Assembly (NCBI GenBank): GCA_964396715.1
Contig: CAYNFQ010000001.1
Coordinates: 117,873 to 181,872, forward strand
DNA: 64,000 bases
Reading direction: 5' to 3'
Source of the DNA: an uncultured Gammaproteobacteria bacterium
GTDB lineage: Bacteria; Patescibacteriota; Microgenomatia; Daviesbacterales; UBA10151
How positions within the stretch are numbered: position 1 is the first letter of the stretch; each line of letters begins with the position of its first letter. The translations under genes and the position numbers were made by a program. Shown piece by piece: positions 7,657-57,085 of the stretch. The notes below the pieces were generated by a model. The model saw nothing but the letters and a program-made list of their open reading frames with translations, was not told the origin of the DNA and made no database searches.

Positions 7657-7738
7657 ACCCTGATACATTATCAAAAAGGTTATGCTTAGTAAAGCTATTG
7701 TTGTAAGCAATTTCACAACTTCAGTTATAATTAGTAAT
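7657..7738. promoter_or_regulatory. Divergent intergenic region between family-A membrane protein gene and GT2 gene; probable bidirectional promoter
   Basis: Only non-coding gap between divergently oriented genes; AT-rich. No consensus elements confirmed. Confidence 0.25.
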
Positions 7739-32226: not shown

Positions 32227-34377
32227 ATGATGGATATTAAAAAAAATTTGAGTCCACTAATTATTTTAATAGTTTGTTTGATCCTTATTTTTGTATGGTT
32301 TAACAAGGGTTTGCTTTTTGCAGGTGGAGAGGGGGGAATCCCTTTTTATAACCTTTCAAAAACTGCAGAGCGCATTTCTTATCTTTGGATAGATGAAGAG
32401 GCTGGTTATCCGGGTGTAGGCAATCTAACAGAAGTCCCTTACTATGCATTGCTTAAGATCCCTTTGCAGTTTGGTGTGCCTTCAAATCTGGTTCAGGCTT
32501 TTCATTTTTTCTTGGTTATGTTTACCGGCGTGGTTTCTGTATATTTTCTGATAAAAATAACCATAGAGGAAGAACTTAAAAAAAATCTTAATTTTTGGGG
32601 CGCAAAATATATATCTTTGATTGGCGCTATCTTCTATTTATTAAATCCTTTTTCCATGTCGCAGGTTTTTGGCAGGAGTTTAAATATTCAATATCTTTCT
32701 TTTGTATTGCTGCCTTTATTTCTCCTGCTGTATATCAGGGGACTTAAAACAAGAAATCTAATATATGGCTTTTTAAGCTTGATACCTTCTTTTATCTTCT
32801 CAGGAGCGTATGGCAGTTTTGGATATATACCAGCACTTTGGTTTCTGGTATTTCTTTATACTGTATTTTACCTTTGGAAAAATAGAAGTAAAAGAGAAAT
32901 TATTTTTGGTATTTTTTTCTTATCTTTTGTTTTTCTCAGCTGGATCATGGTAAATCTTTTTTGGATTATTCCGGTTTTTAAATTAGGGGGACAACAACTG
33001 GCAGCTTCCCTTAATGCGACAGAGGAAAATCTTGGGTCTTTAAGAGGGGTGAGTAAGCATTTTTCTCTGCCTATTCTTATCAGGCTTCTTCATACAGGAT
33101 ATTTCTATGAGGATTTATACGGGATTGTTTATTCAAGTTTATTCTTTGTGATTATAAGTTGGATAATTCCTGTAGTGTCATTTTTTTCATTAACCCTTTT
33201 TAAGAAAGTAACCAGTTTTAAATTCTACCTGACTTTATTTGTAATTTCCCTTTTTATATCTTTAGGTTCTAATTTCCCAACAGGCTGGTTATTTGAATTC
33301 ATATTTGAAGCTGTACCTGCATTTCAAATGTACAGGAATCCTTATGAAAAATTTGGGCTGATTTTTCTTTTAGCCTATACCCCATTTTTTGCATTGGGGA
33401 CTCTGGTTTTGTCAGAAAAATTAGCTGCCTTTTTTAAACATCAACGTTTAAAGTATTTTTGGGTGGTGCTCATTCTTTTTCTGGTGAGTGGCATTTTTGT
33501 TTGGCCAATGTGGAAGGGAATTTTTGCAGGAGGTTACAGGATCAATACCTGGATAAACGTACCTGATTATTATAAAAATGCTAACGATTGGTTAAATCAG
33601 CAGGATGGAGATTTTAGATTGTTGCATCTTCCTTTAATTCCAGGAGATGGCATAAGGTATAAGTGGGATCATCCATATCAAGGCATTGAACCGTCTGAAT
33701 TTTTATTTGATAGAGCATCAATAGCTCAAAATATTCCTTTTAACAAACAATATTACAATGTTTTACTTCAGCGCATTGGGATTTTCCAGCCAAATATTTT
33801 TGGTTCTGATCCTGATTTGACAAATTCGGAATTTAAATCCGAAAAATTAGGGGAAGAGTTAGCGAAATTAAATATTCGATATATAGTTTTACATAATGAT
33901 ATTGATGTTAGTTTCGGTGGTTTCAAAACACCACAAGAAACTGCAGTCTATTTGGCCAAAGATAAAAAAATAATCAAAGTTAAAAGTTTCGGTCAGCTGG
34001 ATATATATGAGGTGGAAATTCCCCAAAATATTCAAATTATTTATTCTCCATCAACTACTTTAATCTATGAAAAAATTAACCCCGCTTTTTATAAAGTAAA
34101 AGTTACTGATGAAGTTAAACCTTTTAATTTGAATTTTCTTATGTCTTACAATTCAAATTGGCACGCTGTTATTGATGGTGAAGTAATACAGGATCATGTA
34201 AAATTATTTTCGTATGGAAATTCCTGGGAAGTTAACAAAACCGGCAGTTTTGAAATAGATTTAGTTTATAAACCGCAGGAACTGGTTAAACAGGGACAAA
34301 TAATTTCAACGTTTTCGTTTATAGTAATATCTCTGCTGATGGTCTGTTACCAAATTATATGGAAAAAAAGAATTTAA
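32227..34377 (+). CDS. Large polytopic membrane protein, family B (N-terminal multi-TM GT-C-like domain + C-terminal extracytoplasmic beta-rich domain)
   Basis: Shares WFxxGLxFxGGxxGxxFxN, RNPYEKFG, LLHLPLIPGDGIRYKWDHPYQGIEPSEF, IRYIVLHND motifs with the giants at 38636, 42468 and 46347. Confidence 0.65.
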   Translation: MMDIKKNLSPLIILIVCLILIFVWFNKGLLFAGGEGGIPFYNLSKTAERISYLWIDEEAGYPGVGNLTEVPYYALLKIPLQFGVPSNLVQAFHFFLVMFTGVVSVYFLIKITIEEELKKNLNFWGAKYISLIGAIFYLLNPFSMSQVFGRSLNIQYLSFVLLPLFLLLYIRGLKTRNLIYGFLSLIPSFIFSGAYGSFGYIPALWFLVFLYTVFYLWKNRSKREIIFGIFFLSFVFLSWIMVNLFWIIPVFKLGGQQLAASLNATEENLGSLRGVSKHFSLPILIRLLHTGYFYEDLYGIVYSSLFFVIISWIIPVVSFFSLTLFKKVTSFKFYLTLFVISLFISLGSNFPTGWLFEFIFEAVPAFQMYRNPYEKFGLIFLLAYTPFFALGTLVLSEKLAAFFKHQRLKYFWVVLILFLVSGIFVWPMWKGIFAGGYRINTWINVPDYYKNANDWLNQQDGDFRLLHLPLIPGDGIRYKWDHPYQGIEPSEFLFDRASIAQNIPFNKQYYNVLLQRIGIFQPNIFGSDPDLTNSEFKSEKLGEELAKLNIRYIVLHNDIDVSFGGFKTPQETAVYLAKDKKIIKVKSFGQLDIYEVEIPQNIQIIYSPSTTLIYEKINPAFYKVKVTDEVKPFNLNFLMSYNSNWHAVIDGEVIQDHVKLFSYGNSWEVNKTGSFEIDLVYKPQELVKQGQIISTFSFIVISLLMVCYQIIWKKRI

Positions 34378-35528: not shown

Positions 35529-35535
35529 TTTCTTA

Positions 35536-36447
35536 ATGAAAAATTATCCCGGCGTTTCGGCAGTAATCCCGAGTTTTAATGATAAGAAAAAAGTTTTCCG
35601 GCTTTTGGATTCTTTAAAAAAATCAAAATATAAAAAATTGGAAATTATTGTTGTTATAAACGGGTTGATAGATACCCTTTTGGAGGGAAAGATTAAATAC
35701 AAATGGGTCCGCTGGATTGATGCGGGAAGGGAAAATATTGGCCAGACCGGATGCTACAATTTAGGTTTTGCGCATGCTAATAGAAAAAATCACATACTTT
35801 ATGTTGATTCCGATGTGGTTGTAGATAAGGAGATGGTTTCTAAATTGGTAGAAAGAGCCCAGTCAGATAAAAAAATTGGTATAGTTACCCCCATGATTTT
35901 ATATTTATCCGATAAAGATTGGGTTAATCAGGCAGGGGCAAGTGTGAATTTGATAACAGGAAAAGTAACAGTGGGCTGGGGTCCAAAAAAGGATTTTTTA
36001 ATAGCAAAAGAAGTGCAAAATTCTGGTACCCTGATGCTTTTTAAAAGACAGGTGGTTGATAAAATCGGAGGAGTTGATGATTGGTTCCTTTGTTATTTTG
36101 ACCCGGACTATTGTCTGAGAGCCAAAAAGGCAGGGTTTATAACCTGGTATGAGCCGAAAGCAATCTGTTACCATGATCAGTCTAAAAACCCAAATGTCTG
36201 GAGACCAAGAGTATTAACAAGGGCATATCTTTTGGGAAGAAACAGGGTTTTATTTATGAGAAGGCATGGAAATATAGTTACTTTCTCCTTTTTTTTGCCC
36301 TTAATTTTAGGTTTTTATCTTTTTGAATGCATTAAATTTGGACAAATTATTAAATTCTTTAAACTTTTGTGGGGGAGTATTGTAGGGTATTTTTATCCAT
36401 TAAGATCAGGTAATTTTATCCCGCTGCCAAAAGTAAACCGCACATGA
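35536..36447 (+). CDS. GT2 glycosyltransferase
   Basis: VSAVIPSFNDKKKV...EIIVVING, DSD motif. Confidence 0.7.
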   Translation: MKNYPGVSAVIPSFNDKKKVFRLLDSLKKSKYKKLEIIVVINGLIDTLLEGKIKYKWVRWIDAGRENIGQTGCYNLGFAHANRKNHILYVDSDVVVDKEMVSKLVERAQSDKKIGIVTPMILYLSDKDWVNQAGASVNLITGKVTVGWGPKKDFLIAKEVQNSGTLMLFKRQVVDKIGGVDDWFLCYFDPDYCLRAKKAGFITWYEPKAICYHDQSKNPNVWRPRVLTRAYLLGRNRVLFMRRHGNIVTFSFFLPLILGFYLFECIKFGQIIKFFKLLWGSIVGYFYPLRSGNFIPLPKVNRT

Positions 36448-38000
36448 AAAACAAATTAGCTTCGGTTGTAATAGTCACACATAATAGGAAGAAAGACTTG
36501 CTGGAATGTATAGATTCTTATTTTAAGTCAAGTTATCACCCGATTGAAGTAATTGTTGTAGATAATGCCTCAAATCCTGCCGTAAAAACATATCTTCCAA
36601 AAAAATATCCTAAGGTAAGAGTAATAACCAATAATAGAAACCTGGGGGCAGCGGAAGGAAGAAATATAGGTTTGGATACCTCAGTGGGGGAGTATATCCT
36701 GTTTTCGGATGATGATGCTTTTTGCGATAAAGATATGGTTAAGTATTTGGTTGAGGCATTCAAAAAAAAGCGTAAGGCAGGGATAATCCAGCCTTTGGTT
36801 TATGACAAACAAAAGAAAAATTATTTACAGGGGGCAGGTCATGATATTGATCTAACAACTGGAAGAATTAAGGCCTGGGGAGTCAGAGAAGAAGATAAGG
36901 GCCAATATGAAGGTTTAAGAAAAGTGCCAATGGTAGGATGTGTCTGGATGGTTAGAAAAGAAGTGTTTGAACAGGTGGGTAAATTTGATGCGGAATACTT
37001 TATTCCCTATGAAGACAGCGATTTTTGTTTGAGAGCATCAAATGCCGGTTTTGAAATTTATTGTTACTCAATGGCTAAATCTTGGCATTTGGGTCTTAAA
37101 ACAACTCATGTACATCCCCTGGTAGAGTGGTTAGGAATAACAACTCCGGAAAGATCGTATAGAGTTGCCAGAAACAAAATAATTTTTATGGCAAAAAACT
37201 CAAAATTTCCCAACAATTTGTTATTTTTCGGGCTATTTATGCCTGCATATTTGATTTTGCACTCATTAGTAATAATGTTGAGCGGTAGGTGGGATTTGTT
37301 AACAAGATACTGGCAGGGTGTTATCTCCGGGATATGGTATGGAATAAGGAGATTATTTAATAAAGCGACCATCATTATACTTTCCTTCACTGATCCGCTC
37401 CCATGGGTTTTGGATAAAAAGACAACAAGCATTTTAGACGTAGGGTGTGGAGAGGGTTTACCTATGAAGTTAATTAAAATAAGACTTAAGATAGAAAATT
37501 CAACCGGAGTAGATTTATTCAAGCCCTATATAGAAAAGGGAAGACAGTTTCAAATACATGATAATTACAAAATTCAGGATATAAGAAAGATAAATTTTAA
37601 AAATAGGTCTTATGATACGGTTATAGCGTCTCATGTTTTGGAACATCTTCCCAAAGATGATGCATTGAACCTTTTGCAAAAAATAGAGAAAATTGCCTCA
37701 AGACAAATAATTATAGCTTGCCCGATTGGACAGATGTATCACCCTGAAACAGACGGAAATAAACTGCAATTACACCTTTCGGCTTTTGAACCGGAAGAAT
37801 TTGAAAAAAGGGGTTATAAAATTATTAGGTATGGGTTCAGATGGTTGTTGGGAGAAGGAGGGATAATGGAATCATTTTCTAATATTTTCATCACGGAGAT
37901 TTGTTTTACTATTCACTTGCTATTTACGCCTATTTTTTATATATTTCCCAATATTGGAAGCTACACATTTGTGGCCTACAAAAAATGTAATGAAGCATAA
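36444..38000 (+). CDS. Fusion protein: N-terminal GT2 glycosyltransferase + hydrophobic linker + C-terminal class I SAM methyltransferase
   Basis: ASVVIVTHNRKKDLL...VIVVDNAS, DDD; then ILDVGCGEGLP...SHVLEHLPK MTase motifs; 518 aa. Confidence 0.7.
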   Translation: MKNKLASVVIVTHNRKKDLLECIDSYFKSSYHPIEVIVVDNASNPAVKTYLPKKYPKVRVITNNRNLGAAEGRNIGLDTSVGEYILFSDDDAFCDKDMVKYLVEAFKKKRKAGIIQPLVYDKQKKNYLQGAGHDIDLTTGRIKAWGVREEDKGQYEGLRKVPMVGCVWMVRKEVFEQVGKFDAEYFIPYEDSDFCLRASNAGFEIYCYSMAKSWHLGLKTTHVHPLVEWLGITTPERSYRVARNKIIFMAKNSKFPNNLLFFGLFMPAYLILHSLVIMLSGRWDLLTRYWQGVISGIWYGIRRLFNKATIIILSFTDPLPWVLDKKTTSILDVGCGEGLPMKLIKIRLKIENSTGVDLFKPYIEKGRQFQIHDNYKIQDIRKINFKNRSYDTVIASHVLEHLPKDDALNLLQKIEKIASRQIIIACPIGQMYHPETDGNKLQLHLSAFEPEEFEKRGYKIIRYGFRWLLGEGGIMESFSNIFITEICFTIHLLFTPIFYIFPNIGSYTFVAYKKCNEA

Positions 38001-38682
38001 TCACCGGCATGAATTTGAAAAAGATTCACAGAGCAAGTTTAAATTATTTTTAATGGCTATATCCGATCCATTGTCTTGGGTTGTTGATAAATCGGTAAGG
38101 TCAATATTGGATTTGGGGTGCGGTCAGGGCAAGCCAATGGCTATGATCAAACTTTGGCACAAAATAGATACTGCGGTGGGAGTTGAGCTATATAAGCCGT
38201 ATATTAAACTTGCAAGAAAGCAGAAGTTACACGATAAATATATTATTGGAGATGTAAGAGAGGTTAATTTTAAACCAAAATCTTACGATTTAGTTTTAGC
38301 CTCCCATGTTCTAGAGCATCTTCCTAAAAAGGATGCATGGAAACTTTTGAGCAAGATGGAAAAAATTGCCAAGATGCAAATTATTGTGGCAACGCCGATC
38401 GGAGCAATTTATCAACCTGCTTTTGATGATAATAAACTCCAGCAACACAAATCACATTTTCTGCCGGAAGAATTTGAAAAAAGAGGTTACAAGGTGATCA
38501 AATACGGTTTAAGATTTCTTTTGGATGAACATTCCGGGGGATTAGTTTACAAATTTAGCAATCCTACTGTTAAAAAAATTATCTATATTGTTAATTTTTT
38601 AATGACTCCTCTTTACTATCTATTCCCTCAAATTTGTGATTATTCGTTTGTGGCCTACAGGAGTATTAATAGTGAAAATTAA
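37990..38682 (+). CDS. Class I SAM methyltransferase, tandem paralog of the C-terminal domain of 36444..38000
   Basis: ILDLGCGQGKP...ASHVLEHLPKKDAWKLL...FLPEEFEKRGYKVIKYGLRFLL collinear with fused domain; start at Met13 of ORF. Confidence 0.7.
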   Translation: MKHNHRHEFEKDSQSKFKLFLMAISDPLSWVVDKSVRSILDLGCGQGKPMAMIKLWHKIDTAVGVELYKPYIKLARKQKLHDKYIIGDVREVNFKPKSYDLVLASHVLEHLPKKDAWKLLSKMEKIAKMQIIVATPIGAIYQPAFDDNKLQQHKSHFLPEEFEKRGYKVIKYGLRFLLDEHSGGLVYKFSNPTVKKIIYIVNFLMTPLYYLFPQICDYSFVAYRSINSEN

Positions 38683-41600
38683 AGATTACCTCTCAGTTGC
38701 CTTTTTATTTATTTTGTCAACTATACTTATTTTGATTTGGTTTAAGCAAGGACTGGCATTTGGCGGAGGAGACGTAGGTTTGCCCACTTTTAACCCCCAA
38801 AGGATTTTTCAATTTATCAGTCATATCTGGTGGGAAGCATCAGCCCCGGGTTTTCCAAGACCCCAGGGAATAACGGGTACCCCCTTTTATTTTTTGTTGT
38901 CCTTATTACAAAAAATAATTCCCTCATATGTATTAATGCAGGCTTTAATCTTCTGGTTGGTACTTTTTTTTATGGGGCTGGGTATGTACCTGGTTTCAAA
39001 AAGCGTTTTCGGAAAAGAAAAAGTGCTAATACCTCTTGTCTCCAGCATACTGTATCTCGTTAATCCTTATATGCAAATTTCAGTTTGGCATAGGTTTGTG
39101 CACACCACTTTTTTTCTGGCATCGACACTGCCTTTTTTGTTTATTTTTTGGCGCAGGTGGATTACATCAGGAAAACGATTAGATCTTCTTATTTTTTCTT
39201 TAATTAATGTTTTAGGTGCAATAATTTTCAGCACTTTGGGGTTTGTGATCAGTTTGTGGGTTTTTTTATTTTTTACCTCTTTTTTTATTATTTTTATACC
39301 GCGAAAAAGTTTATTCGAGGCAAAAACAATTATAGTAAGATCTACTGCGGGATTTATTGTTTGGGTATTTATATCTTTGTGGTGGATTTTGCCCCTTTTT
39401 GCTACTTCGCAGGCGATTTTTTCCAGACAGCACTCTTCAGCTGAGAGTGTAACAAACTTAATTGTTTTAAGCAACCAAACGGCAATTCCCAATACCTTGC
39501 AGGGAATTAACCCTTTTTATTTGTTTGAAGAAAAAGAATGGGGGGAAATTTACAATCAGTGGTATTTTCTACTGATGCCATTCATCCTAGTTACCCTGGC
39601 AGTTTTGGGGTTTGTAAGGGGTTTGGGTGATCGCAAATTTATTTTTTGGAGCCTGCTTTTTTTAGTAAGCATAATTTTTGCCAAAGGGGCGGCAGCCCCT
39701 TTTGGAGGCGGTTTTGTATATTTGTTTAGTAAATTTTTTGTATTGGGAGTTTTGAGAAATCCGTTTGAGAAAATAGGTATTTTTATACCCTTTACTTACG
39801 CCATCCTTATCCCGATAGGCTTGATCACTTTTTTTAAATTTGCCAAAAAAGCGAAACTTCAATATATAGTTATGCCATTTGTATCTATATTGCTGATTTT
39901 GATTTTAGTCATTTGGCATTGGCCATTTTGGCAGGGAAAATTATTCGGAAGCCAATATAGTCCGCCCGAAGTTCAGGTACCGGATTATTATTTAAAGGCA
40001 GATAATTGGATAAAGGAACAAGGAAAGGATGGAAGAATTCTTCACCTGCCGCTGGTTGTCGGTGAAGCAACTGCGTATAAGTGGGAGTATGGCTACAGAG
40101 GTGTTGAGCCGAGCCAGGTTTTTTTCACTTCAAATCCTTCTCTGTCCCAGGGGTTTAATTTAAGCTTTTTGGATGATGCGCTAGCAACGCTGCAGATATT
40201 TTTAAACAGGAGTGATTTTGTTGATGAAGATCAAATCAGGCAACTTCTTAAAATTTTTGGGATCCGATACATTGTTTTACATCTTGATATGGATCCAACA
40301 TATATGGACGTATACAACCCAATAAGGCTTAAAAAACAATTGGGTCAGCTTAAGTTTCTAAAAAAACAGAATGAATTCGGCAAACTTATTATATATGAGG
40401 TTCTGGAAGAAAACCCTATCATTTTTACAGCTTCATCTTTTGATTATTTACTAATGGGAGAGAAAAATCAATTTTGGCCCTGGTTAATTAAGAATAAAAA
40501 CAATCAACTTATCTCAGGGATAGACTTGGATGAAGATTCGATTCATACGGATCATTCGATAGTAGTTGCTTCTTTCTCATTTGATACACCGCCCTCAAAT
40601 CCCGTGGAAGAAAAAATAGAATTGGATCAGCTTCCATCTGTCCGGATACTACCAGGATCCCCCTTTTATTTTTTAATAAGGCTGAAAGAGTACTTTGAAA
40701 CATATTCTGTTTTTGGGAAAGAACGTATTTCAAAACAAATCCTCTTTGCCAGTAAAAGGCTTGTGGAAGCGGTTAAGATAAAGGAACTTGATAAAAACAA
40801 CCAAATCTCGGCAATTTTAACAGATTATTCAGACCTTTTGGACAAGCTGAAACTATCATTAAAAGGGGCATTTCCCTATGAAAAATCTGCAGTTGATGCA
40901 ATATTTGCAAGACATAGTGTTATTTTAGATTCACTTACAGATTCCGCTGTTACAGGTAGTGAGAAGGAAATTGTAGTAAAAGCTAAAGAAAAATTGGCCG
41001 AAGATTTGAGTTTATGGGGTTTGCGGCCTCTTATCGCTTTTAATAAAGAAACATCATTGTATAACAGAAGAGTATTTACATTTCAGGTTTCGAAAACAGG
41101 GGATTATGAGGTTTTATTCGGCCTGGATAAAGGAAATAGCTTTGATGAAATTTTTGATATAGCTTTGGATGGAAAACCGATCTTAAAAAATAATCCGACT
41201 GATCTGGAACAACCGGTCAAAATAATAAGTTTCGGCAAAATATATTTAGAGCCAGGTTATCATGAATTAAGTTACCGTTCCAAAAAAATTCCCGTAAATA
41301 TTTTATCGCTTGATAAGTGGTTTAAGTCGGAAAAAGGCGAGTTTAGCGGAAACTCAGATGAGATGAGTATAAGCAGTGAGATAAATGAAACAGCGAGCAT
41401 GCAATTGCCTATGAAAGATTTTATTGCCGGGAATACTTATATACTTCGATTTGAATACTGGGTTCAAAAAGGCAAGGGGCCGATAGTGCAAGTACTTTCG
41501 GATAACGACCCAATAATAAAAGGTAAAAGAGAGATGAAAGCAGATAAGCAGTTTGCCGCCGAAACCTATAACCGTTATTGGCAAAATGCGTTTGTGAGTT

Positions 41601-42139
41601 TTGAACCCCGTTTGTCAGCCGATGATACTTTAATTGAGATATCGGTTGAACCCTGGAATGATTGTGAGATAATCAGCCCGATTCGTTCGACTTGCAAGAT
41701 TAAGAAATTTAGAAAACAATTTGACAGAAAAAGCACATTGATTGTCAAAAATGTTGTCCTTGAAAGAATTTCCAGGTCTGAGATTTTTCTTAAAACCTCA
41801 AATAGCAAAATTAAAGAGTCTACAAATTCAGGCAGGGTTGAATATGCTAGGGAAAACCCTTCTTTTGTCAGGGGGAAATTAAAAATCGATAAACCCCAAG
41901 TTTTGGTATTCGCTGAAACTTTCGATAAGGGTTGGAAGTTAGATTTATTTAAAGAGGGTAGAAAAATTAATCCTCAGGAGCATTTATTGGTAAACGGTTA
42001 TGCTAATGGTTGGTTGGTAAAGGAAGCTGGAGAATATGAATTCTCTATCAATTTTGACGCCCAGAAACTAGTCAACATAGGCGGTATAATATCTATGATA
42101 ACTTTGGGGGGATTACTATTATGGCTTATCAGAAAATAA
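38636..42139 (+). CDS. Giant (1167 aa) polytopic membrane protein, family B; N-terminal ~570-aa multi-TM GT-C-like module and ~600-aa C-terminal extracytoplasmic domain
   Basis: WFKQGLAFGGGDVGLPTFNPQRI...WWEASAPGFPRPQG, VLRNPFEKIG, ILHLPLVVGEATAYKWEYGYRGVEPS, IRYIVLHLDMD, C-terminal NGYANGW; alternative GTG start at 38672. Confidence 0.7.
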   Translation: MIIRLWPTGVLIVKIKDYLSVAFLFILSTILILIWFKQGLAFGGGDVGLPTFNPQRIFQFISHIWWEASAPGFPRPQGITGTPFYFLLSLLQKIIPSYVLMQALIFWLVLFFMGLGMYLVSKSVFGKEKVLIPLVSSILYLVNPYMQISVWHRFVHTTFFLASTLPFLFIFWRRWITSGKRLDLLIFSLINVLGAIIFSTLGFVISLWVFLFFTSFFIIFIPRKSLFEAKTIIVRSTAGFIVWVFISLWWILPLFATSQAIFSRQHSSAESVTNLIVLSNQTAIPNTLQGINPFYLFEEKEWGEIYNQWYFLLMPFILVTLAVLGFVRGLGDRKFIFWSLLFLVSIIFAKGAAAPFGGGFVYLFSKFFVLGVLRNPFEKIGIFIPFTYAILIPIGLITFFKFAKKAKLQYIVMPFVSILLILILVIWHWPFWQGKLFGSQYSPPEVQVPDYYLKADNWIKEQGKDGRILHLPLVVGEATAYKWEYGYRGVEPSQVFFTSNPSLSQGFNLSFLDDALATLQIFLNRSDFVDEDQIRQLLKIFGIRYIVLHLDMDPTYMDVYNPIRLKKQLGQLKFLKKQNEFGKLIIYEVLEENPIIFTASSFDYLLMGEKNQFWPWLIKNKNNQLISGIDLDEDSIHTDHSIVVASFSFDTPPSNPVEEKIELDQLPSVRILPGSPFYFLIRLKEYFETYSVFGKERISKQILFASKRLVEAVKIKELDKNNQISAILTDYSDLLDKLKLSLKGAFPYEKSAVDAIFARHSVILDSLTDSAVTGSEKEIVVKAKEKLAEDLSLWGLRPLIAFNKETSLYNRRVFTFQVSKTGDYEVLFGLDKGNSFDEIFDIALDGKPILKNNPTDLEQPVKIISFGKIYLEPGYHELSYRSKKIPVNILSLDKWFKSEKGEFSGNSDEMSISSEINETASMQLPMKDFIAGNTYILRFEYWVQKGKGPIVQVLSDNDPIIKGKREMKADKQFAAETYNRYWQNAFVSFEPRLSADDTLIEISVEPWNDCEIISPIRSTCKIKKFRKQFDRKSTLIVKNVVLERISRSEIFLKTSNSKIKESTNSGRVEYARENPSFVRGKLKIDKPQVLVFAETFDKGWKLDLFKEGRKINPQEHLLVNGYANGWLVKEAGEYEFSINFDAQKLVNIGGIISMITLGGLLLWLIRK

Positions 42140-42483
42140 AATCAGTATCCATAAGGTTGTTTATTTTGTTTCTTTCAATAGTATTGATTTATTATACTAA
42201 TGGTAATGCCGGCAGTGAATCTTTTGGAAATATTCAATCTGCAATTTTGTCAGCAGGTTTGATTGTTGCAGTGTATTTACCTGCTAAGAGGCCTTTCATA
42301 CTTCTCTTTGCCATTTTAATGTGGTCTGTTATGATAGGATTTTACCTGGTAGAAGCTCGGGATTATGCTTACTTTTTCGGCAGTATAGGTTTTGGGATAA
42401 TATTTCTGGTAATCTTAACTTATGTTCCGGAACTTTTAAAAACAGGTTATATAGCCGATTTTCAAAAATGGTTCAAAGATTAA
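42121..42483 (+). CDS. Small (120 aa) 3-4 TM membrane protein following giant B1
   Basis: Hydrophobic; C-terminal GSIGFGIIFLVILTYVPELLKTGY resembles GSLGIGILAILIFSYFGDFVKRGF of 45935..46264. Confidence 0.5.
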   Translation: MAYQKIKSVSIRLFILFLSIVLIYYTNGNAGSESFGNIQSAILSAGLIVAVYLPAKRPFILLFAILMWSVMIGFYLVEARDYAYFFGSIGFGIIFLVILTYVPELLKTGYIADFQKWFKD

Positions 42484-45400
42484 CAAAATTTTTTTTCAAT
42501 AATAATTTGAACAGTCATTTTTTTGCGTTATTTACGTTTTTTTTACTCAGTGTATTTCTTGTTTTCAGCTGGTTTAGACAAGGCTTAATTTACGGGGGAG
42601 GAGATGTTGGTTTGCAGACCTTTAATCCCCAAAGGATACTGGAAATCTCCCAATTTATCTGGTGGGAAGCAACCGCCCCCGGTATTCCGGTTCCCCAGGG
42701 TTTAACCGCCATACCATTCAATTTTGCCTTTTCTATTTTACAATCCATAGGTTTTAGCCCGTTTTTACTTCAGGCAAGCTTGTTTTTTCTTATACTTTTC
42801 TTCTGTGGTCTGGGAATGTATTTTCTTATTTTATTTTTGTTTGGGGACAGGTATAAAATTTATGCAATTTTGGCGGGATTATTCTATATGGTTAATCCAT
42901 ACATGATGATTTCGGTTTGGCACAGGTTTGTCCACTCAACGTTCTTCTTTATTTCGGCTCTGCCTTTTTTAACTATTTTCTGGCTGAAGTGGATCAGGAA
43001 CAAAAATCCGATATCACTCCTGATTTTTTTATTAATTAACCTTATTTCCTTGTATGCTTTCGGGACGATTGCCTATATTCTTACCCTCTGGCTTTTCCTT
43101 TTTCTAATCACTATTCCTGAAATAATTTTTTCCTGGCAAGGCCTAAAAAATTTTAAGAAAATATTGACGGTTTTTTTAGTAGGTTTCTTTTTTTGGGTTT
43201 TGACAAATGCCTGGTGGTTGGTGCCTATATTTAAAATCTCTCCGACTGCTTTGTCGGAGCAACACAGTAATGAAGAAACTTTATCTACACTAATAAATAT
43301 AAGCAGACAAACTATACTTCCCTACTCATTACAAATGATCAATCCTTTCTATTTATTTTACCAGCTGGATTTGGGGAAAAGTTACCAGAATGTTTTTATC
43401 CGTGTCCTCCCTTGGATTTTTGTTTCAGTTATTTTTATCGGATTAATAAGGGCTTTGTTCAATAAAGACATGGCAAGATGGACTCTGGTTTATCTTGCCG
43501 TAATATTTTTTGCCAAAGGCGCGGCTTCCCCCTGGGGTTTTATATATATCTTTGCCTTAAAATATTTTTTCCCCCTCGGGGTGCTGCGGAACCCGTTTGA
43601 AAAAATTGGTATTCTGTTACCTCTGGTAAGCACAATTTTATTTATCATTGGATTAAAATTTGTTTATGAAAGCCTAAGACATAAATTCAGCGTGAGGGTT
43701 GCAGCAGTTAGCCTGGTAGTTGTTTTTGGATCTGTTTTTATTTTTTGTTTGCCCTTATTCGGAGGGAGAATATTTGGTAGGTTTGATAAACCGGAATTTG
43801 TAAGTGTACCGCAATCTTATAAGGATGCGGATAATTGGATTAAATCCGACTATGAAAAGAATAAAAATCAAAATCCAGGCAAGATTTTACATTTGCCCCT
43901 GACAAGAGGTGAAAGCATTAATTATAATTGGGAATATGGCTACAGCGGACTGGAATCCAGTGCATTATTCTTTACAGCCGCCCCTTCTATTTCTCACGGG
44001 TTCAATCTCAGGAGAACTGATGATTCTTTGACAACGCTTTATTATTCGCTTCGAAATAGTCATTTATTTGATCAGAATATTACAAAAAGACTCTTGAGTG
44101 ATTTTAATATTGCCTACATTGTGTTGCATAAAGATGTGAAATGGCAGGGTTCTGATTTGTACAATCCCGCAGAGACAGAGGAGGTTTTAAATAAATTAAA
44201 TTTTATTAAACTTGAAAAAACCTTTGGAGATTTAATGATTTATAAAGTATTGGAAGAGAATTTTAATCCGAAGATTTTCATAAGCGGAAACTATCACATA
44301 ATTTATCCTCCCAATACTTTTAGCGTACAGCCCTGGATAGAAGCGTCAGGTAGTTCCATCATAACTTCCGTAGATATTGAAGATAATCGAAAATTGGAGG
44401 AATTTTCCCGAAGCACTACAATTTTTTCTAAAAGCTCCTTTGTTTATACAGAGGCATCATCTTCTTCAATTGTGTCAACTATAAATGCATTGGTTTCCAA
44501 TCCGGCAAGTAAAGACTTATGGTTAGATTCATTAATTAAAATCAGGCCGATTTTGAAACAAAATGGTGAGATCCAGGCAGAAGAATTTAGCAGTCAAATA
44601 ATTTATGCCAGTGAAAAAATTTTAAAAATAATGAGAGGATTTGCTTTAGAGAAAAATGATCCTTCCCCAAAAGAGGTAGACGATTATGGTCAAATAGTTA
44701 AAAACCTCTTTTCTGCCAATACCTACAGTCCCAGACTACAACTTTACGCTAACAGTACACAGCTCAGTCAGATATTCCAGATTCATTTATACATTCTCAA
44801 AATAATTTCTGAAATAACCCAATCAGAAACCAGAAACAATTTGATAAGGGTTTTAGATCTGTTAAAAGAAAATTTATCCAGAAATAATCTTATTCCCGAT
44901 TCTTCGGAGATGCAGGCTATCTCATCAAGAAGAGATGTTTATAAATTTGAAGTGCCTTATGATTCGGATTACAAAATTATCCTTGCATTTTCCAAGGACA
45001 AATCTATTTATCAAAATAAATTAGATAAGCTATTTTTTATCCTTGACGGTAAACCACTTAATTTTAAGGGAGAGGTAGAAAATGACCTAATTTCATTTGG
45101 TCCTGTATCCATTGCAAAGGGGTCACACATGATTAGTTTTCCGGTCCTTTTATCGGATAATTTATCAGTTATCGCTAATTTTATTAAGGGGGGGGAGGTT
45201 AATTTATCAGATGATGGTAATTTTTATCTTAAGGGGGCTGACACTAATTTAAGCTTTCTAGAAAGTAGAATAAACAATACTTTTGGACAAGACATATTTA
45301 AAGTAAACTTCGATGTAAAAGTAGAAAAAGGAAACGGTTTTAATTTTCAACTTTTGCAGGATACGGACACCATTGATCAAACCGGCCAGCCGAATTTGGC

Positions 45401-45938
45401 AATAAATCAGAAGATTTTCCAACCGGAGGGAACAGATTGGCTAGAGTATGATTTTTTTCTGCCGCCTCTCAGGTTTAATACGGATACTGTTGCCATAAGA
45501 TTTGTAGCTAATTCTCCCATAAAAGTAAGAAATTTAAAAATTGAGAGAGTATTTAACGGAGACGTTTTTTTAAGGGATATTAAATCTTTTAATAAGATAA
45601 ATGATAAAGGAGCGGGTAAGGTAGATTTCTATCAAAAAAACCCTGCCCTTTACAGAGGTAAGATTTATTTGGATAAACCATCCTTTATAATATTTTCAGA
45701 ATCTTTTCATCCCGGTTGGAAATTAGTTTTATCTAAACAGGGCAAAGATTATATTCCTACCATTCATACAATGGCAAACCTTTATGCAAATGCCTGGTAT
45801 ATTGATAAAGACGGCGAATATGATTTTAAGCTGGAATTTGAACCTGAAAGAATAGTGAAAATTGGCTCTCTATTGGCATTAGCAGGTTATTTGAGTCTTA
45901 TAATCTATATTATCTTAAAAAATAGAAAAAATAGATGA
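42468..45938 (+). CDS. Giant (~1156 aa) polytopic membrane protein, family B paralog
   Basis: WFRQGLIYGGGDVGLQTFNPQRI...WWEATAPGIPVPQG, VLRNPFEKIG, ILHLPLTRGESINYNWEYGYSGLESS, IAYIVLHKDVKW, LYANAW; start at Met50 of ORF (overlaps 3' end of small protein gene). Confidence 0.7.
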   Translation: MVQRLTKFFFNNNLNSHFFALFTFFLLSVFLVFSWFRQGLIYGGGDVGLQTFNPQRILEISQFIWWEATAPGIPVPQGLTAIPFNFAFSILQSIGFSPFLLQASLFFLILFFCGLGMYFLILFLFGDRYKIYAILAGLFYMVNPYMMISVWHRFVHSTFFFISALPFLTIFWLKWIRNKNPISLLIFLLINLISLYAFGTIAYILTLWLFLFLITIPEIIFSWQGLKNFKKILTVFLVGFFFWVLTNAWWLVPIFKISPTALSEQHSNEETLSTLINISRQTILPYSLQMINPFYLFYQLDLGKSYQNVFIRVLPWIFVSVIFIGLIRALFNKDMARWTLVYLAVIFFAKGAASPWGFIYIFALKYFFPLGVLRNPFEKIGILLPLVSTILFIIGLKFVYESLRHKFSVRVAAVSLVVVFGSVFIFCLPLFGGRIFGRFDKPEFVSVPQSYKDADNWIKSDYEKNKNQNPGKILHLPLTRGESINYNWEYGYSGLESSALFFTAAPSISHGFNLRRTDDSLTTLYYSLRNSHLFDQNITKRLLSDFNIAYIVLHKDVKWQGSDLYNPAETEEVLNKLNFIKLEKTFGDLMIYKVLEENFNPKIFISGNYHIIYPPNTFSVQPWIEASGSSIITSVDIEDNRKLEEFSRSTTIFSKSSFVYTEASSSSIVSTINALVSNPASKDLWLDSLIKIRPILKQNGEIQAEEFSSQIIYASEKILKIMRGFALEKNDPSPKEVDDYGQIVKNLFSANTYSPRLQLYANSTQLSQIFQIHLYILKIISEITQSETRNNLIRVLDLLKENLSRNNLIPDSSEMQAISSRRDVYKFEVPYDSDYKIILAFSKDKSIYQNKLDKLFFILDGKPLNFKGEVENDLISFGPVSIAKGSHMISFPVLLSDNLSVIANFIKGGEVNLSDDGNFYLKGADTNLSFLESRINNTFGQDIFKVNFDVKVEKGNGFNFQLLQDTDTIDQTGQPNLAINQKIFQPEGTDWLEYDFFLPPLRFNTDTVAIRFVANSPIKVRNLKIERVFNGDVFLRDIKSFNKINDKGAGKVDFYQKNPALYRGKIYLDKPSFIIFSESFHPGWKLVLSKQGKDYIPTIHTMANLYANAWYIDKDGEYDFKLEFEPERIVKIGSLLALAGYLSLIIYIILKNRKNR

Positions 45939-46264
45939 AAAAAATGTTGCTTAAAACTTTTTTTGTAATAATGTCTTTTTTTATCTTTTGGTGGCTGGAA
46001 TCCGGCTTGAAAATAGAAGAAATTAGCGCAATTATTAAGCCTTTAATATTTGCCCTCTCAGTTTCAATGACTTTTTCAATTAAACTTCGAAGGTATTTAT
46101 TATACATAAGTTTCTTGTTTTATTGTCTGATGATTTTTCTATATTTAATTTGGCAAATAAGCTTAGCAAACCTTGCAGGAAGTTTAGGAATTGGGATACT
46201 GGCTATCTTGATATTTAGCTATTTTGGTGATTTTGTAAAAAGGGGTTTTGTTGAGAAGCTATGA
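45935..46264 (+). CDS. Small (109 aa) membrane protein following giant B2
   Basis: ATGA overlap with giant stop; 3 hydrophobic segments; C-terminal motif shared with 42121..42483. Confidence 0.5.
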   Translation: MKKMLLKTFFVIMSFFIFWWLESGLKIEEISAIIKPLIFALSVSMTFSIKLRRYLLYISFLFYCLMIFLYLIWQISLANLAGSLGIGILAILIFSYFGDFVKRGFVEKL

Positions 46265-46350
46265 AATACCTATTCTCACTTATTTTATTTTTTCTGATAG
46301 TAGCATCGGTATTTTTTTATATTTTGGGGGTTAGATTTAAGAAAAAATGA
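46261..46350 (+). CDS. Micro-ORF, 29-aa single-TM peptide MKYLFSLILFFLIVASVFFYILGVRFKKK
   Basis: ATG overlaps upstream TGA (46261-46264), its TGA overlaps ATG of giant B3 (46347-46350); below ORF-track length cutoff. Confidence 0.35.
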   Translation: MKYLFSLILFFLIVASVFFYILGVRFKKK

Positions 46351-49031
46351 AGAAAAGAATTGCCTTAATGTTTTTTCTGATCTTACCCTTTTTTTGGATT
46401 TTTTGGTTACCTGGCCCTAGGGTGGCAACAGATTATCACCTGACCACAAAGGAAACCCAGCTGGATAACCTGTTTCCCTGGATCTGGAGAGAAACCAGTG
46501 TGGCAGATGGTTTGGGGGAATATACTGCTATTACTCTTTGGTCACAGCCGCTTCATTCATTTTTCGCCAGTCTATATCAGATTAATTTACCTTTTTCATT
46601 TTTGACAAAGCTGCTTGTCGGATTAATTATCCTGCTTAGTATTATTTCCATGCTCAAGCTTTTAGATTATTTGAAAATTAAAAGTCCGTATCAAGAAGTT
46701 GGTGTAATTTTTTACATATTAAATACATTTTTTTTACTTCTCCTTGACGGTGGACAGTTGGCCTTGACACTTGCTTACGCAGTTTTTCCTCTCTCGGTTT
46801 ATTGTTTTCTGCTACTCATGCAAACAGCAAATTTGAAAAGAAGACTTTTATTTGCTTTCAGCGTCCTGGCAATTTCCATATTTGATATCAGGATTGTTTA
46901 TTTGCTGTTTATGGTCTGTGCCATTTTTGTCCTGTTTAAATTTTTTTTATCACCTTCAAAAAAAGAAGTTGTTTTAGTTTTTAAAGAGGTTTTACTATCA
47001 GCAATATTTACCATACTGATAATTTTTCCCTTTCATGCTTACTGGATACTACCTGCTTTAGTTGTTAAGACACCACAGTTGCCGCAGACTTATGAGAGAG
47101 TTTCCCAGATAGATTTTTTAAGCTTTTCCACACTGCTTCATTCCCTAATTTTGAATCAGCCCCACTGGTATAAAAATATCTTTGGTAAAATATCAGAGGT
47201 AAGTTTTGAGTTTTTGCTGATTCCCGCAACAGCTTTTATCTCTTTAGCCCTAGTTAGGAGAAATACCCAGGTTGCTTTCTGGTCACTTATTGCAATCTTG
47301 GGAATTTTTCTCTCCAAGGGTTCAAATCCACCCCTGCCTCAAATTTATTCTTATCTTTTTGCCAGCATTCCCGGATTTTCAATTTTCCGTGATCCTGCCA
47401 AATTTTATTTTCTAATTTGTATCGCGTACACAATATTAATAGGATTTTCTCTTCAGGCGATGGGTAAGTTAGCAAAAATTATCCCATTTGTTTTTCTTTT
47501 GTATATAGTCTGGCTTGCCAGGCCGGTATATCTTGGACAAATGAGCGGACTATTTTCCTTCCCATCTTTTGAAAAAGAATTTAATTTACTATCAGAGGTA
47601 ATAAAAGAAGACAAACAATTCTCCCGGGTTTTCTGGATTCCCAATTCAGCACCTTTAGGTTATGTTGGTCCCAATCACCCGCAAGTTGAAGCTTCCAGGT
47701 TATCTAAAAAAAGGCCTTTTGCCGCAGCAACAGTAGGAACTTATGAGACATTTAATTTCTTAAGAGAGGCACCTTTCATGGGAGAAATTTTTGATGTGTC
47801 GGGGATTGGATATATTGCATATCCCTATATAGACAAACAAAGGGAGGAGGCGGATTTTGATAAAGAAAAATATTACTACACATTTTTAAATCAACTGTCC
47901 AAACTTCCCTGGGTTTCCAAAGTTGAATATTCGGGTATGCCGCTGCTTAAAGTCAAAAATCACCAGGATAAATTTTTTGTTACGGGAAATACCTGGTGGA
48001 TAATAGGGGATGATAGTTTATATAAAGAGTCAACCAAAAGTGCTACGCTTAAATTATCCAAAAACAGTTTGATTTTTACCGAAGAGCATGCGGGTTTGGG
48101 GAAAAGACTGGATGAGGTTTCGGATGCCAAAATTATACTGAATAAAAAAAGCAACATAGACCTTGCAGCAAGTTTTATTGATGCCTCAAAACTTTTTTTT
48201 CCGGCAAAAAGCCTTAATTTCAGTCCCGATGAATCAGGTTGGTGGAAAAGGGAGGCGGTGGATTTGGTTTGGTGGAGAGATTTTTTACAAAACAAATACG
48301 GGATAGATAATAAGGATTTTGATTTAGGAGGAGGATGGGCGGTGGGGGAAGGGTATTCAAAGTTCAAAGTTCAAAGTTCAAAGTTCAAAAAGGACAATAT
48401 TTTGCTGGCAAGAGTAATGGAAAGTTCCAGAAGTGGGAATTTGAAATTTTATCAAGACAATCAACTAATCGGGGAAGTGGGAACTAAAATTAACGGAGAT
48501 GCCAATGTTAGATGGTTTGAAGTAGGGGAGTTAAGTGGAAATGGTAGCGGGATTGCTATAGAGTCCACAGGAGATATTAATGTGGTTAATACATTGGCAG
48601 TTTTGGACAAAAACGACTGGGATAGTTTAAAGGATAAAGCCGATAAGCTGCAGGGGAGAGTGGTAAGTTTTGATGACAAGAGTATACAAAATGTAACCGG
48701 CTCCATGGTTTCTTACCGGAGGATAAACCCCACTAAATATATTGTAAATATAGACGGTTTAACAAAGCCGTCATTGTTAGTATTTTCCCAAAATTATGAT
48801 AGTTTATGGAAGATGAGTGGTCAGACTCCCCTGCCACGTTCAGCTAACATGAACGTGGCTCTGCCGGTGTATAGTTTGCTGAATGGATTTAGAGTGGAAC
48901 AGGACGGAGAGTATATTGTTGAATTTGAGGCGCAAAAGTATGTTTATTTAGGGTTAGCAATCTCCATAATGACTTTGCTTACAATAACTTTTCTACTCAT
49001 CTTAGGCACCAGGAGATCATCTAGGCTATAA
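46347..49031 (+). CDS. Giant (894 aa) polytopic membrane protein, divergent family B paralog
   Basis: N-terminal multi-TM, FRDPAKFYFL (aligns to RNPFEKIG), C-terminal LLNGF...DGEYIVEFEAQKYV like DGEYEFSINFDAQK of B1. Confidence 0.65.
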   Translation: MKKRIALMFFLILPFFWIFWLPGPRVATDYHLTTKETQLDNLFPWIWRETSVADGLGEYTAITLWSQPLHSFFASLYQINLPFSFLTKLLVGLIILLSIISMLKLLDYLKIKSPYQEVGVIFYILNTFFLLLLDGGQLALTLAYAVFPLSVYCFLLLMQTANLKRRLLFAFSVLAISIFDIRIVYLLFMVCAIFVLFKFFLSPSKKEVVLVFKEVLLSAIFTILIIFPFHAYWILPALVVKTPQLPQTYERVSQIDFLSFSTLLHSLILNQPHWYKNIFGKISEVSFEFLLIPATAFISLALVRRNTQVAFWSLIAILGIFLSKGSNPPLPQIYSYLFASIPGFSIFRDPAKFYFLICIAYTILIGFSLQAMGKLAKIIPFVFLLYIVWLARPVYLGQMSGLFSFPSFEKEFNLLSEVIKEDKQFSRVFWIPNSAPLGYVGPNHPQVEASRLSKKRPFAAATVGTYETFNFLREAPFMGEIFDVSGIGYIAYPYIDKQREEADFDKEKYYYTFLNQLSKLPWVSKVEYSGMPLLKVKNHQDKFFVTGNTWWIIGDDSLYKESTKSATLKLSKNSLIFTEEHAGLGKRLDEVSDAKIILNKKSNIDLAASFIDASKLFFPAKSLNFSPDESGWWKREAVDLVWWRDFLQNKYGIDNKDFDLGGGWAVGEGYSKFKVQSSKFKKDNILLARVMESSRSGNLKFYQDNQLIGEVGTKINGDANVRWFEVGELSGNGSGIAIESTGDINVVNTLAVLDKNDWDSLKDKADKLQGRVVSFDDKSIQNVTGSMVSYRRINPTKYIVNIDGLTKPSLLVFSQNYDSLWKMSGQTPLPRSANMNVALPVYSLLNGFRVEQDGEYIVEFEAQKYVYLGLAISIMTLLTITFLLILGTRRSSRL
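48356..48390. repeat. Heptanucleotide tandem repeat (TTCAAAG)x4 + 1 imperfect inside giant B3 CDS (encodes SKFKVQSSKFKK)
   Basis: ttcaaagttcaaagttcaaagttcaaagttcaaaa; same CAAAGTT unit as 13593-13627. Confidence 0.9.
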
Positions 49032-57082: not shown

Positions 57083-57085
57083 TCT

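Follow-up and report, generated by a model that had tools for sequence, protein, structure and literature searches.

The window analysed here, a 64,000-nucleotide stretch of contig CAYNFQ010000001.1 (assembly GCA_964396715.1), comes from an uncultured, Daviesbacteria-like (Microgenomates/CPR) bacterium and carries a sugar locus that exceeds 50 kb and encodes GT2 and GT4 enzymes, methyltransferases, sugar-nucleotide enzymes, Wzx, and Wzy-like proteins. Within this locus lies an array of four large + strand genes that together take up about 12 kb, G1 (32227..34377), G2 (38672..42139), G3 (42468..45938) and G4 (46347..49031), whose products we refer to as the giants. The four open reading frames reported in an initial annotation are all present, at the coordinates given there or close to them, with the start of G2 moved to 38672. 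The longest reading frame for G2 extends from a GTG at 38636 to 42139 and would encode 1167 amino acids (aa), but an identical public protein (P0001) begins at 38672 and is 1155 aa long. For G1 the longest reading frame begins at 32128, and the gene call on identical contigs gives a protein of 716 aa. An automatic gene call shortens G3 to 1108 aa, as against 1156 aa from position 42468, and because the shorter version loses TM1 and the conserved GGGD loop, the start at 42468 is the better one. G4, the divergent member of the set, is 894 aa long.

The four giants are homologous as judged by sequence similarity, which is far above chance. In BLAST comparisons G2 and G3 align along their full length (E = 0.0; 34% identity over about 1190 columns), G1 matches G2 at 1e-62 and G3 at 3e-58, and G4 is matched by G1 at 2e-17, by G2 at 9e-8 and by G3 at 2e-5; alignment of the G4 family with the G2/G3 family using hhalign yields a probability of 100% and an E value of 1.6e-38 across 850 aligned columns. 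A set of loop motifs had been described as common to all four proteins, which is overstated, since exact matches are present in G2 and G3 only; G1 has degenerate versions (WFNKGLLFAGGEGGIP, MYRNPYEKFG and LHLPLIPGDGIRYKWDHPY), and G4 retains only traces (VATDYHL and FRDPAKFY). The acidic loop residue that is expected of a GT-C enzyme is kept in all four paralogs, as a D or E in the first outer loop, and so is the E of the G-x-E-x-S motif. The N-terminal stretch W-F-x-x-G...GGGDVG is invariant across alignment A3, and residues W23, F24, G27, G31-33, D34, W139-H140-R141, R362, N363, E366, K367 and H458-L459-P460 are invariant in 24 relatives, with E479 nearly so. Positions that G4 keeps invariant among 11 orthologs include the loop-1 D29, K324/G325, the R-D-P-x-K motif (R348/D349/K352) and an E in the soluble domain. 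G1 presents the layout in its shortest form, with an N-terminal domain of multiple TM helices, a soluble alpha/beta domain, a single beta-domain towards the end and a lone C-terminal TM helix, and lacks the entire middle region. In all four proteins a C-terminal beta-domain leads into a single terminal TM helix, and 2–9 mostly basic residues come after this hydrophobic stretch.

These proteins had initially been left without a named family, but they do belong to one, GT-C_AftD (Pfam PF11847, formerly DUF3367), which G1 matches at 1.5e-11 (43.4 bits) and G2 at 4.3e-11 (41.9 bits), the curated gathering cut-off being 26 bits. For G3 and G4 taken alone no Pfam family reaches threshold, and they are tied to G1 and G2 through the BLAST and hhalign comparisons. 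PF11847 is also the precomputed annotation on most relatives of the giants, some of which have already been named 'alpha-(1->3)-arabinofuranosyltransferase family protein' by NCBI. When a profile built from all four paralog types (A7) is compared with the PDB, the top sequence match is AftD (6W98, E 2.4e-8), and the match is colinear, with 40-255 aligned to 47-251 and 401-567 to 408-570; the narrower profiles A1 and A3 do not match AftD in the PDB. An AlphaFold model of G2 (pLDDT 79.4, pTM 0.72) predicts about 11 TM helices (11 or 12), a soluble alpha/beta domain, a helical DUF5667-like domain at approximately 661-796 for which the Pfam match is weak, beta-sandwich domains at approximately 797-1128, and a single C-terminal TM helix. 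The best three PDB matches to this model in Foldseek are all AftD (6w98, 6wby and 6wbx, E 5e-16 to 3e-14), the best of them having a TM-score of 0.48/0.42; structurally aligned residues are about 10% identical, and the beta-rich region resembles CBM-bearing GH101 enzymes and Cry/Vip3 toxin domains. Pfam, the A7 profile and the structural search agree on the GT-C/AftD assignment that had first been guessed at. For YfhO, named alongside it, none of the four giants matches a family model in Pfam or NCBIfam at E <= 0.1. The oligosaccharyltransferases STT3, PglB and AglB share a GT-C membrane core and a soluble domain with the giants, but the match is far weaker than that to AftD (STT3/PglB rank after it in Foldseek, at E 1e-5 to 1e-3), and those relatives to which the searches attach a name are either uncharacterised or AftD-family, with no oligosaccharyltransferase name among them. 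We regard the family membership, fold and paralogy of the giants as established.

The likeness to AftD extends over much of the architecture, including the N-terminal GT-C domain of multiple TM helices with a soluble alpha/beta domain after it, the huge extracytoplasmic region with beta-sandwich domains, the re-entry into the membrane by a single helix, and the acidic residue conserved in the first outer loop. In AftD the soluble region has been described as containing three carbohydrate-binding modules and a structural beta-sandwich, and the conserved charged residues K39, D41, E251, K361 and D474 surround the active-site cavity. Profile alignment places the E of the giants' G-x-E-P-S motif against the AftD 'TRDEP' stretch, a correspondence at the level of the stretch, which lies close to D474, a residue reported to be essential. 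There are also differences. G2 and G3 have the helical DUF5667-like insert in their middle, and since the AftD paper describes none for AftD, the domain architectures are not the same; AftD comes from an actinobacterium and the giants from a CPR bacterium; and the giants form an operon-like array of four paralogs. We recognised no genes for decaprenyl-phospho-arabinose synthesis in the scanned ORFs of the window, and arabinofuranosyl activity should thus not be assumed.

Taken jointly with the mechanism and the role for the small partners proposed here, it is probable that G1–G4 are four anciently diverged AftD-family paralogs of GT-C membrane glycosyltransferases. Most likely, each giant would take a sugar from a polyprenyl-phosphate-linked donor on the external side of the cytoplasmic membrane and, as membership of this family suggests, add it to a growing cell-surface glycan. 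The active site would be formed by the loop-1 acidic residue (D34 of G2) together with the RNPFEK and G-x-E-P-S motifs, and the glycan acceptor may be held by the C-terminal beta-sandwich domains. We infer that the four enzymes make different additions, successive or branching, in the pathway of the surrounding locus, in keeping with an early suggestion that the paralogs form a specificity-diversified family. It is improbable, if conceivable, that one or more of the giants, G4 above all, act instead as polymerases, ligases or non-catalytic glycan-binding scaffolds on a GT-C chassis. G4 is without most of the G2/G3 motifs and without a Pfam match, is the most conserved giant across genomes (40-58% identity to orthologs in alignment A6), and adjoins a gene for a Wzx/MOP-type polysaccharide flippase (49041..50303, + strand; Pfam Polysacc_synt 1.2e-20), a place typical of polymerase or ligase steps. 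It is nonetheless alignable with the G2/G3 profile across those 850 columns, its D29, K324/G325, R348/D349/K352 and soluble-domain E are invariant in its orthologs, and a Wzy_C protein is encoded by a separate gene (61844-63256).

Two of the giants are followed by genes for small membrane proteins, S2 (42121..42483, + strand, 120 aa) after G2 and S3 (45935..46264, + strand, 109 aa) after G3. Small partners had been attributed to 'giants 1 and 2'; it is true that two giants have them, but these are G2 and G3, and the accompanying labels 'B1 and B2' are correct if they denote this pair. G1 and G4 have no partner gene, the gene after G1 encoding a GT4 glycosyltransferase, and when all 212 small ORFs of the window were scanned with an HMM, no third member of the partner family emerged. 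S2 and the end of G2 overlap by 19 nt, with GGGGGGA lying ahead of the S2 start, the ATG of G3 sits 16 nt within the end of S2, and the S3 start and G3 stop share a 4-nt ATGA overlap. S2 and S3 are 21% identical (E 7e-6) and both carry the C-terminal motif GS[IL]G[FI]GI...K.G[FY], as had been noticed at the outset; S3 scores 111 bits against the HMM of the partner family. The model of S2 has four TM helices (pLDDT 78.6), and the charge signs at the partner N-terminus, second loop and C-terminus fit an N-in/C-in topology.

These proteins belong to an orphan family, matched by neither a Pfam model nor a known fold, that comprises about 94 clusters at 50% identity, all members of which are 59-139 aa long and whose clusters share length, TM pattern, and the GS.G.G and K.G[YF] motifs; the invariant residues are glycines and one serine, and none is charged. 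Short ORFs that run into the adjacent genes and carry no recognised domain might be taken for chance ORFs at gene junctions, but that S2 and S3 are of this sort is hardly credible and is effectively refuted by the family of 94 clusters with their common length and motifs, by the confident four-helix model, and by the persistence of the partner gene in its place after the giant even where the giants are only about 35% identical. The trees of giants and partners are congruent (Mantel r 0.86, a value reached by 0/5000 permutations), and S2 and S3 are translationally coupled to their own giants and have co-diverged with them. At least 10 Daviesbacteria/Microgenomates genomes keep the order G1…G2-S-G3-S-G4-Wzx, and in genomes with the array the orthologs are closer to each other than are the paralogs. 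G1 orthologs are found in L005, L015 and others, and single giant-plus-small modules are found in more distant relatives (L014, L019 and L020). The congruent trees and the single modules bear out the proposal that a module of giant and small partner was duplicated, and we treat the conservation of the module and the coupling of its genes as established. The partner family is previously undescribed and genomically strictly linked to one type of enzyme.

What the partners do is suggested by a further difference from AftD, in which TM12 is followed by an 18-residue loop and then by TM13-16, a four-helix bundle that is reported to be essential, unique to AftD, and the binding site for ACP/4'-phosphopantetheine. 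This bundle is part of the AftD polypeptide but is absent from all four giants, each of which has the one terminal TM helix, and a separate four-TM gene lies downstream of G2 and G3 and not of G1 or G4. Since the giants end in one TM helix where AftD goes on to TM13-16, the partner is most plausibly a separate membrane subunit; we infer that S2 and S3 are dedicated, co-translated four-helix subunits of G2 and G3, each packing against its own giant and possibly taking the place of the TM13-16 bundle. A stronger version, in which the partner is the separately encoded counterpart of TM13-16 and a giant plus its four-TM subunit equals the 16-helix AftD in a 'split' form found in CPR bacteria, is offered tentatively and we think it rather less than probable. 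Only the helix number and the inferred N-in/C-in topology agree between the partners and the bundle. The partner profile has no match in the PDB at E <= 10, AftD included, and no partner-giant fusion was found among 1.84 billion representatives, the longest of the 94 family representatives being 139 aa; because similarity and fusions are both lacking, the idea that the partner replaces TM13-16 is a matter of topology arithmetic (about 11 + 1 + 4 helices). That G1 and G4 manage without a partner also counts against the proposed role. Were the split form real, the regulatory module that faces the cytoplasm in AftD would turn out to be a subunit that is ancient and can be detached, S2 and S3, being paralog-specific, would each regulate or stabilise the giant they belong to, and if the partner does substitute for the regulatory bundle, the array would provide a simpler two-piece system in which to study how such a bundle controls a GT-C enzyme.

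The small proteins might alternatively be dedicated flippases of polyprenyl-phosphate sugar donors for G2 and G3, like GtrA, Rv3789 or ArnE/ArnF, and not structural subunits, which we consider unlikely. Their size of about 110 aa and four TM helices are those of small flippase families, GT-C enzymes require a flipped lipid-linked donor, and a partner type of its own for each giant could mean different donors. The locus also encodes candidate donor synthases: a small soluble-type GT2 (51785..52525, + strand) resembles polyprenyl/dolichyl-phosphate sugar synthases in NCBIfam (AglJ 2.4e-32, ArnC 3.4e-17 and PpgS 1.2e-12, all under curated cut-offs) and from its sequence is a candidate maker of the lipid-linked donor, and a second candidate GT2 lies at 7682-8455. 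The logic would be that of GtrA/GtrB/GtrC, ArnC/ArnE-F/ArnT and PpgS/Rv3632/Rv3779, in which the polyprenyl-phosphate sugar produced by a small GT2 is assisted or flipped by a small membrane protein and then passed on by a GT-C enzyme outside the membrane, and candidate GT2 synthases and small membrane proteins occur both here and in relatives. The partner family, however, matches no known small-protein family of these systems, with 23 partner sequences failing to match the Pfam models for GtrA, SMR/EamA (ArnEF) or DUF2304 even at E <= 5, and its invariant residues include none with a charge. The partner gene is coupled to the GT-C gene and not, as in the three-component systems, to the GT2 gene, and this tight translational coupling suggests 1:1 assembly with a giant; the giants themselves are several times larger than GtrC- or ArnT-type enzymes. 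G1, G4 and the two PMT_2 GT-C enzymes are without such a partner. Moreover, in relatives a separate GT2+DUF2304 pair stands right after the giant-plus-small module, so that another small membrane protein is at hand there for donor handling, and these DUF2304 proteins are not matched by the partner HMM. A subunit role remains our preferred reading for S2 and S3.

AftD is essential in mycobacteria and is treated as an actinobacterial enzyme in the literature found. The locus described here represents a well-conserved, multi-paralog branch of the AftD family in CPR bacteria, a group with scarcely known cell envelopes. The expenditure of about 12 kb on four enzymes points to an elaborate surface glycan, given that CPR bacteria have very small genomes, and such a glycan could have a bearing on the episymbiotic life that these organisms are said to lead. 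The genes around the giants are conserved as well. The Wzx-type flippase directly 3' of G4 keeps its position in L001, and the interval between G1 and G2 (34359..38682) contains, all on the + strand and assigned using Pfam, the GT4 (34359-35528), a GT2 whose tail is hydrophobic (35536-36447), a fusion of GT2 and methyltransferase (36444-38000), and a paralogous methyltransferase (37954-38682), in the same gene order as in L001, L019 and L020.

The interval from 32.1 to 49.0 kb of the window, whose G+C content is low (~35%), contains four long and two short open reading frames (ORFs), all listed on the forward strand. The long ones encode giant membrane proteins, G1 (32227-34377, 716 aa), G2 (38672-42139, 1155 aa; a GTG at 38636 begins the longest ORF), G3 (42468-45938, 1156 aa) and G4 (46347-49031, 894 aa), and the short ones encode small partner proteins, S2 (42121-42483, 120 aa) and S3 (45935-46264, 109 aa). 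The G2-S2-G3-S3 junctions are tightly coupled: a GGGGGGA precedes the ATG of S2, where there is a 19-nt overlap with the G2 stop, the G3 ATG lies 16 nt within S2, and S3 overlaps G3 at ATGA; 82 nt separate S3 from G4. A public protein, P0001, is 100% identical to G2, and the metagenome contigs bearing it have the gene order of the window, with G3 called automatically from a start 48 codons later (1108 aa). We prefer the start at 42468 given in the initial annotation, because the 1108-aa call would drop the first transmembrane (TM) helix and an invariant GGGD loop common to G2 and all relatives.

The giants had been described as a tandem array of four paralogs, and the paralogy is real. BLAST relates all pairs (G2-G3, E = 0.0 with 34% identity over the full length; G1-G2, 1e-62; G1-G3, 3e-58; G1-G4, 2e-17; G2-G4, 9e-8; G3-G4, 2e-5), and hhalign comparison of 11 G4 orthologs with 24 G2/G3 relatives gives a probability of 100% (E 1.6e-38, 850 columns). 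Of the loop motifs quoted as common to all four, G2 and G3 carry exact copies, G1 recognisable but degenerate forms and G4 only vestiges. All four giants share a terminal beta-rich domain and one last hydrophobic helix followed by basic residues, and G1 is devoid of the entire middle region found in G2 and G3. In the relatives' alignment the terminal helix of the giants contains an invariant glycine (G1137).

The initial suggestion of GT-C enzymes resembling AftD, a mycobacterial arabinofuranosyltransferase, is supported by three lines of evidence, and the giants can be placed in a named family. First, G1 and G2 match the Pfam family GT-C_AftD (PF11847; 1.5e-11 and 4.3e-11, both above the 26-bit cut-off), and G2 also matches DUF5667 (PF18915) weakly; one or both families are precomputed for most relatives, a few of which carry the NCBI name 'alpha-(1->3)-arabinofuranosyltransferase family protein'. 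Second, a broad profile covering 620 N-terminal residues of 36 giants, with each of the four types represented, places AftD (6W98) first in the PDB (E 2.4e-8), with colinear stretches nearly in register (40-255 to 47-251 and 401-567 to 408-570); narrower giant profiles did not reach AftD in the PDB. Third, an AlphaFold model of G2 from a 24-sequence alignment (pLDDT 79.4, pTM 0.72) has as its best PDB matches three AftD entries (E 5e-16 to 3e-14, TM-score 0.48/0.42), with CBM-bearing GH101 enzymes, Cry/Vip3 toxin domains and the oligosaccharyltransferases STT3/PglB following ten orders of magnitude behind. Numbered from the start at 38672, the model comprises a TM bundle (residues 1-421), an alpha/beta domain (422-660), a DUF5667-like helical bundle (661-796), beta-sandwich domains (797-1128) and a single TM helix (1129-1154). 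The family is named, yet uncharacterised beyond actinobacteria.

An acidic loop residue, whose absence had been set in advance as grounds for rejecting a GT-C assignment, is present: D34, in the loop right after TM1, is invariant in the alignment of 24 relatives, and each of the four paralogs has D or E there. Also invariant among these relatives are W139-H140-R141, K338-G339, R362-N363…E366-K367 and H458-L459-P460, and E479 is nearly so. Five residues (K39, D41, E251, K361 and D474) have been shown to be essential in AftD, and in the profile alignment the glutamate of G-x-E-P-S pairs with the AftD 'TRDEP' stretch close to D474, a match at the level of the stretch.

A small protein had been reported after giants 1 and 2; the two homologous partners with their shared motif are real, but they follow G2 and G3, and the gene after G1 encodes a GT4 glycosyltransferase. 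S2 and S3 (BLAST E 7e-6, 21% identity) have GS[IL]G[FI]GI and K.G[FY] in common, and a partner-family HMM run on the window's 212 small ORFs found no third member. The modelled partner (pLDDT 78.6) has helices at 2-27, 36-52, 54-76 and 80-107 and a short C-terminal helix; its N-terminus, second loop and C-terminus are basic, which suggests from sequence that both ends are cytoplasmic. G28, G87, S88 and G109 are invariant, M71 and G90 nearly so, and the alignment contains no invariant charged residue; we interpret the invariant residues as of the small type usual where helices pack tightly. A search of 1.84 billion representatives yields 94 family members, all of 59-139 aa and none fused to a long protein, and source records call them only 'hypothetical protein'. 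In the reading that we favour, the partner is a membrane subunit in stoichiometric association with its giant. The main rival reading, a flippase for the donor, appears rather improbable; a Pfam scan of the partner family at E <= 5 returned nothing, GtrA, SMR/EamA and DUF2304 included.

As described in the AftD structure paper, the AftD chain returns to the membrane through TM12 and, after an 18-residue loop, forms a four-helix bundle (TM13-16). This essential bundle packs on TM8/9, binds the 4'-phosphopantetheine of acyl carrier protein and, of the Aft/Emb enzymes, occurs only in AftD. The giants here, in contrast, end just past the single helix, and the sum of giant (~11 + 1) and partner (4) helices equals the AftD count, which suggests that the partner may take the place of TM13-16. 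That it is specifically the functional counterpart of this bundle is a tentative idea, less likely than not; beyond topology, the fusion search and a partner profile run against the PDB (no match at E <= 10) gave nothing positive.

The named relatives belong to genomes of Candidatus Daviesbacteria, Microgenomates and Patescibacteria, which places the window in a CPR bacterium. Several genome titles (loci L008-L011, L017 and L018) read 'uncultured Gammaproteobacteria bacterium (binchicken…)', which seems to be a placeholder or an erroneous assignment and not the real taxonomy. Scanning one genome per species gave 14 loci, and ORF typing recovered the order G1 … G2-S-G3-S-G4 at L001/L013, L005, L006, L007, L008, L009, L010, L012 and L015, and incomplete forms of it where contigs are truncated; at L014 there is a single module (giant and 107-aa partner) plus a G4. 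L001 also shares the flanks of the array, with GT2, methyltransferase and GT2-methyltransferase genes upstream and Wzx, GT2 and methyltransferase genes downstream. Orthologs (identities of 39-58% for G4, 38-52% for G3 and 33-37% for G2) are nearer than paralogs, and the duplications are therefore older than the divergence of these genomes. The giant and partner trees (21 sequences each) agree for the most part, and each has a G2-type and a G3-type clade (Mantel r 0.86, reached by 0 of 5000 permutations). This bears out the proposal that the two-gene module was duplicated, giant and partner having been copied together and having diverged in step. A physical partnership is compatible with this, although linkage alone would give the same pattern. 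In remoter relatives with a single module (giants of 989-997 aa, partners of 112-113 aa), the genes run G1-like, GT4, GT2, methyltransferase(s), giant, partner, GT2 (~220 aa) and DUF2304. The last two, the DUF2304 membrane protein being ~115 aa, lie directly 3' of giant and partner (L019, 11322-12331; L020, 11322-12328). The pair resembles mycobacterial PpgS/Rv3632.

The AftD-family GT-C fold, conserved loop-1 acid and large extracytoplasmic beta domains, together with four ancient paralogs, two of which have a coupled four-helix partner that diverged along with them, are the observed basis of a proposed mechanism. By family chemistry, each giant would take a sugar from a polyprenyl-phosphate donor and, outside the membrane, pass it to a surface glycan, its beta domains would hold the polymer, and the paralogs may differ in acceptor or linkage; arabinofuranose should not be assumed as the sugar. 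The initial observation was largely right and its interpretation is supported; new here are a multi-paralog array conserved across CPR genomes, truncation at the C-terminus, a helical insert and an orphan partner family.

The giants sit in a glycan locus that takes up the whole window. It includes GT4 and GT2 enzymes, many methyltransferases, UDP-GlcNAc 2-epimerase, 4,6-dehydratases, a Wzx-type flippase, a Wzy_C protein and two tandem PMT_2-type GT-C enzymes (55679-58423; 467 and 445 aa), which with G1-G4 make at least six of GT-C type. Two small GT2s (51785-52525 and 7682-8455) look like synthases of polyprenyl/dolichyl-phosphate sugars (AglJ, ArnC, PpgS), with all matches under curated cut-offs, and are candidate makers of lipid-linked donors. 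An oxidoreductase (15008-16018), a DegT aminotransferase (16508-17695), an epimerase/dehydratase (17658-18659), a formyltransferase with both domains (20189-21106) and, on the reverse strand, a second formyltransferase-like gene (30749-31414) and a PIG-L-type deacetylase (31488-32087) recall Arn (4-amino-arabinose) logic and suggest that the glycan contains an amino sugar carrying a formyl or acyl group. Genes at 21103-23902 encode a 6-phospho-3-hexuloisomerase (HxlB, above cut-off) and a ribulose-phosphate 3-epimerase, followed by a 530-aa protein whose N-terminal region is sugar-phosphate nucleotidyltransferase-like, and may form a route to an unusual activated sugar.

Four large polytopic membrane proteins (870-3143, reverse, 757 aa, ~12 TM; 5314-7947, reverse, 877 aa, ~17 TM; 18624-20138, reverse, 504 aa; 52518-53984, forward, 488 aa) have no Pfam or NCBIfam family and no BLAST relationship to G1-G4. 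The 877-aa ORF is divergent from the GT2 at 7682-8455. In the listed coordinates the two overlap by ~266 nt, and the start of the 877-aa ORF therefore probably lies further downstream. Just upstream of G2, the methyltransferase half of a GT2-methyltransferase fusion (36444-38000) and the gene at 37954-38682 are clear paralogs and, judged from their sequences, a local tandem duplication, having in common SILD[VL]GCG.G.PM, ASHVLEHLPK, EEFEKRGYK and a similar hydrophobic tail ending in [ST]FVAY[KR].
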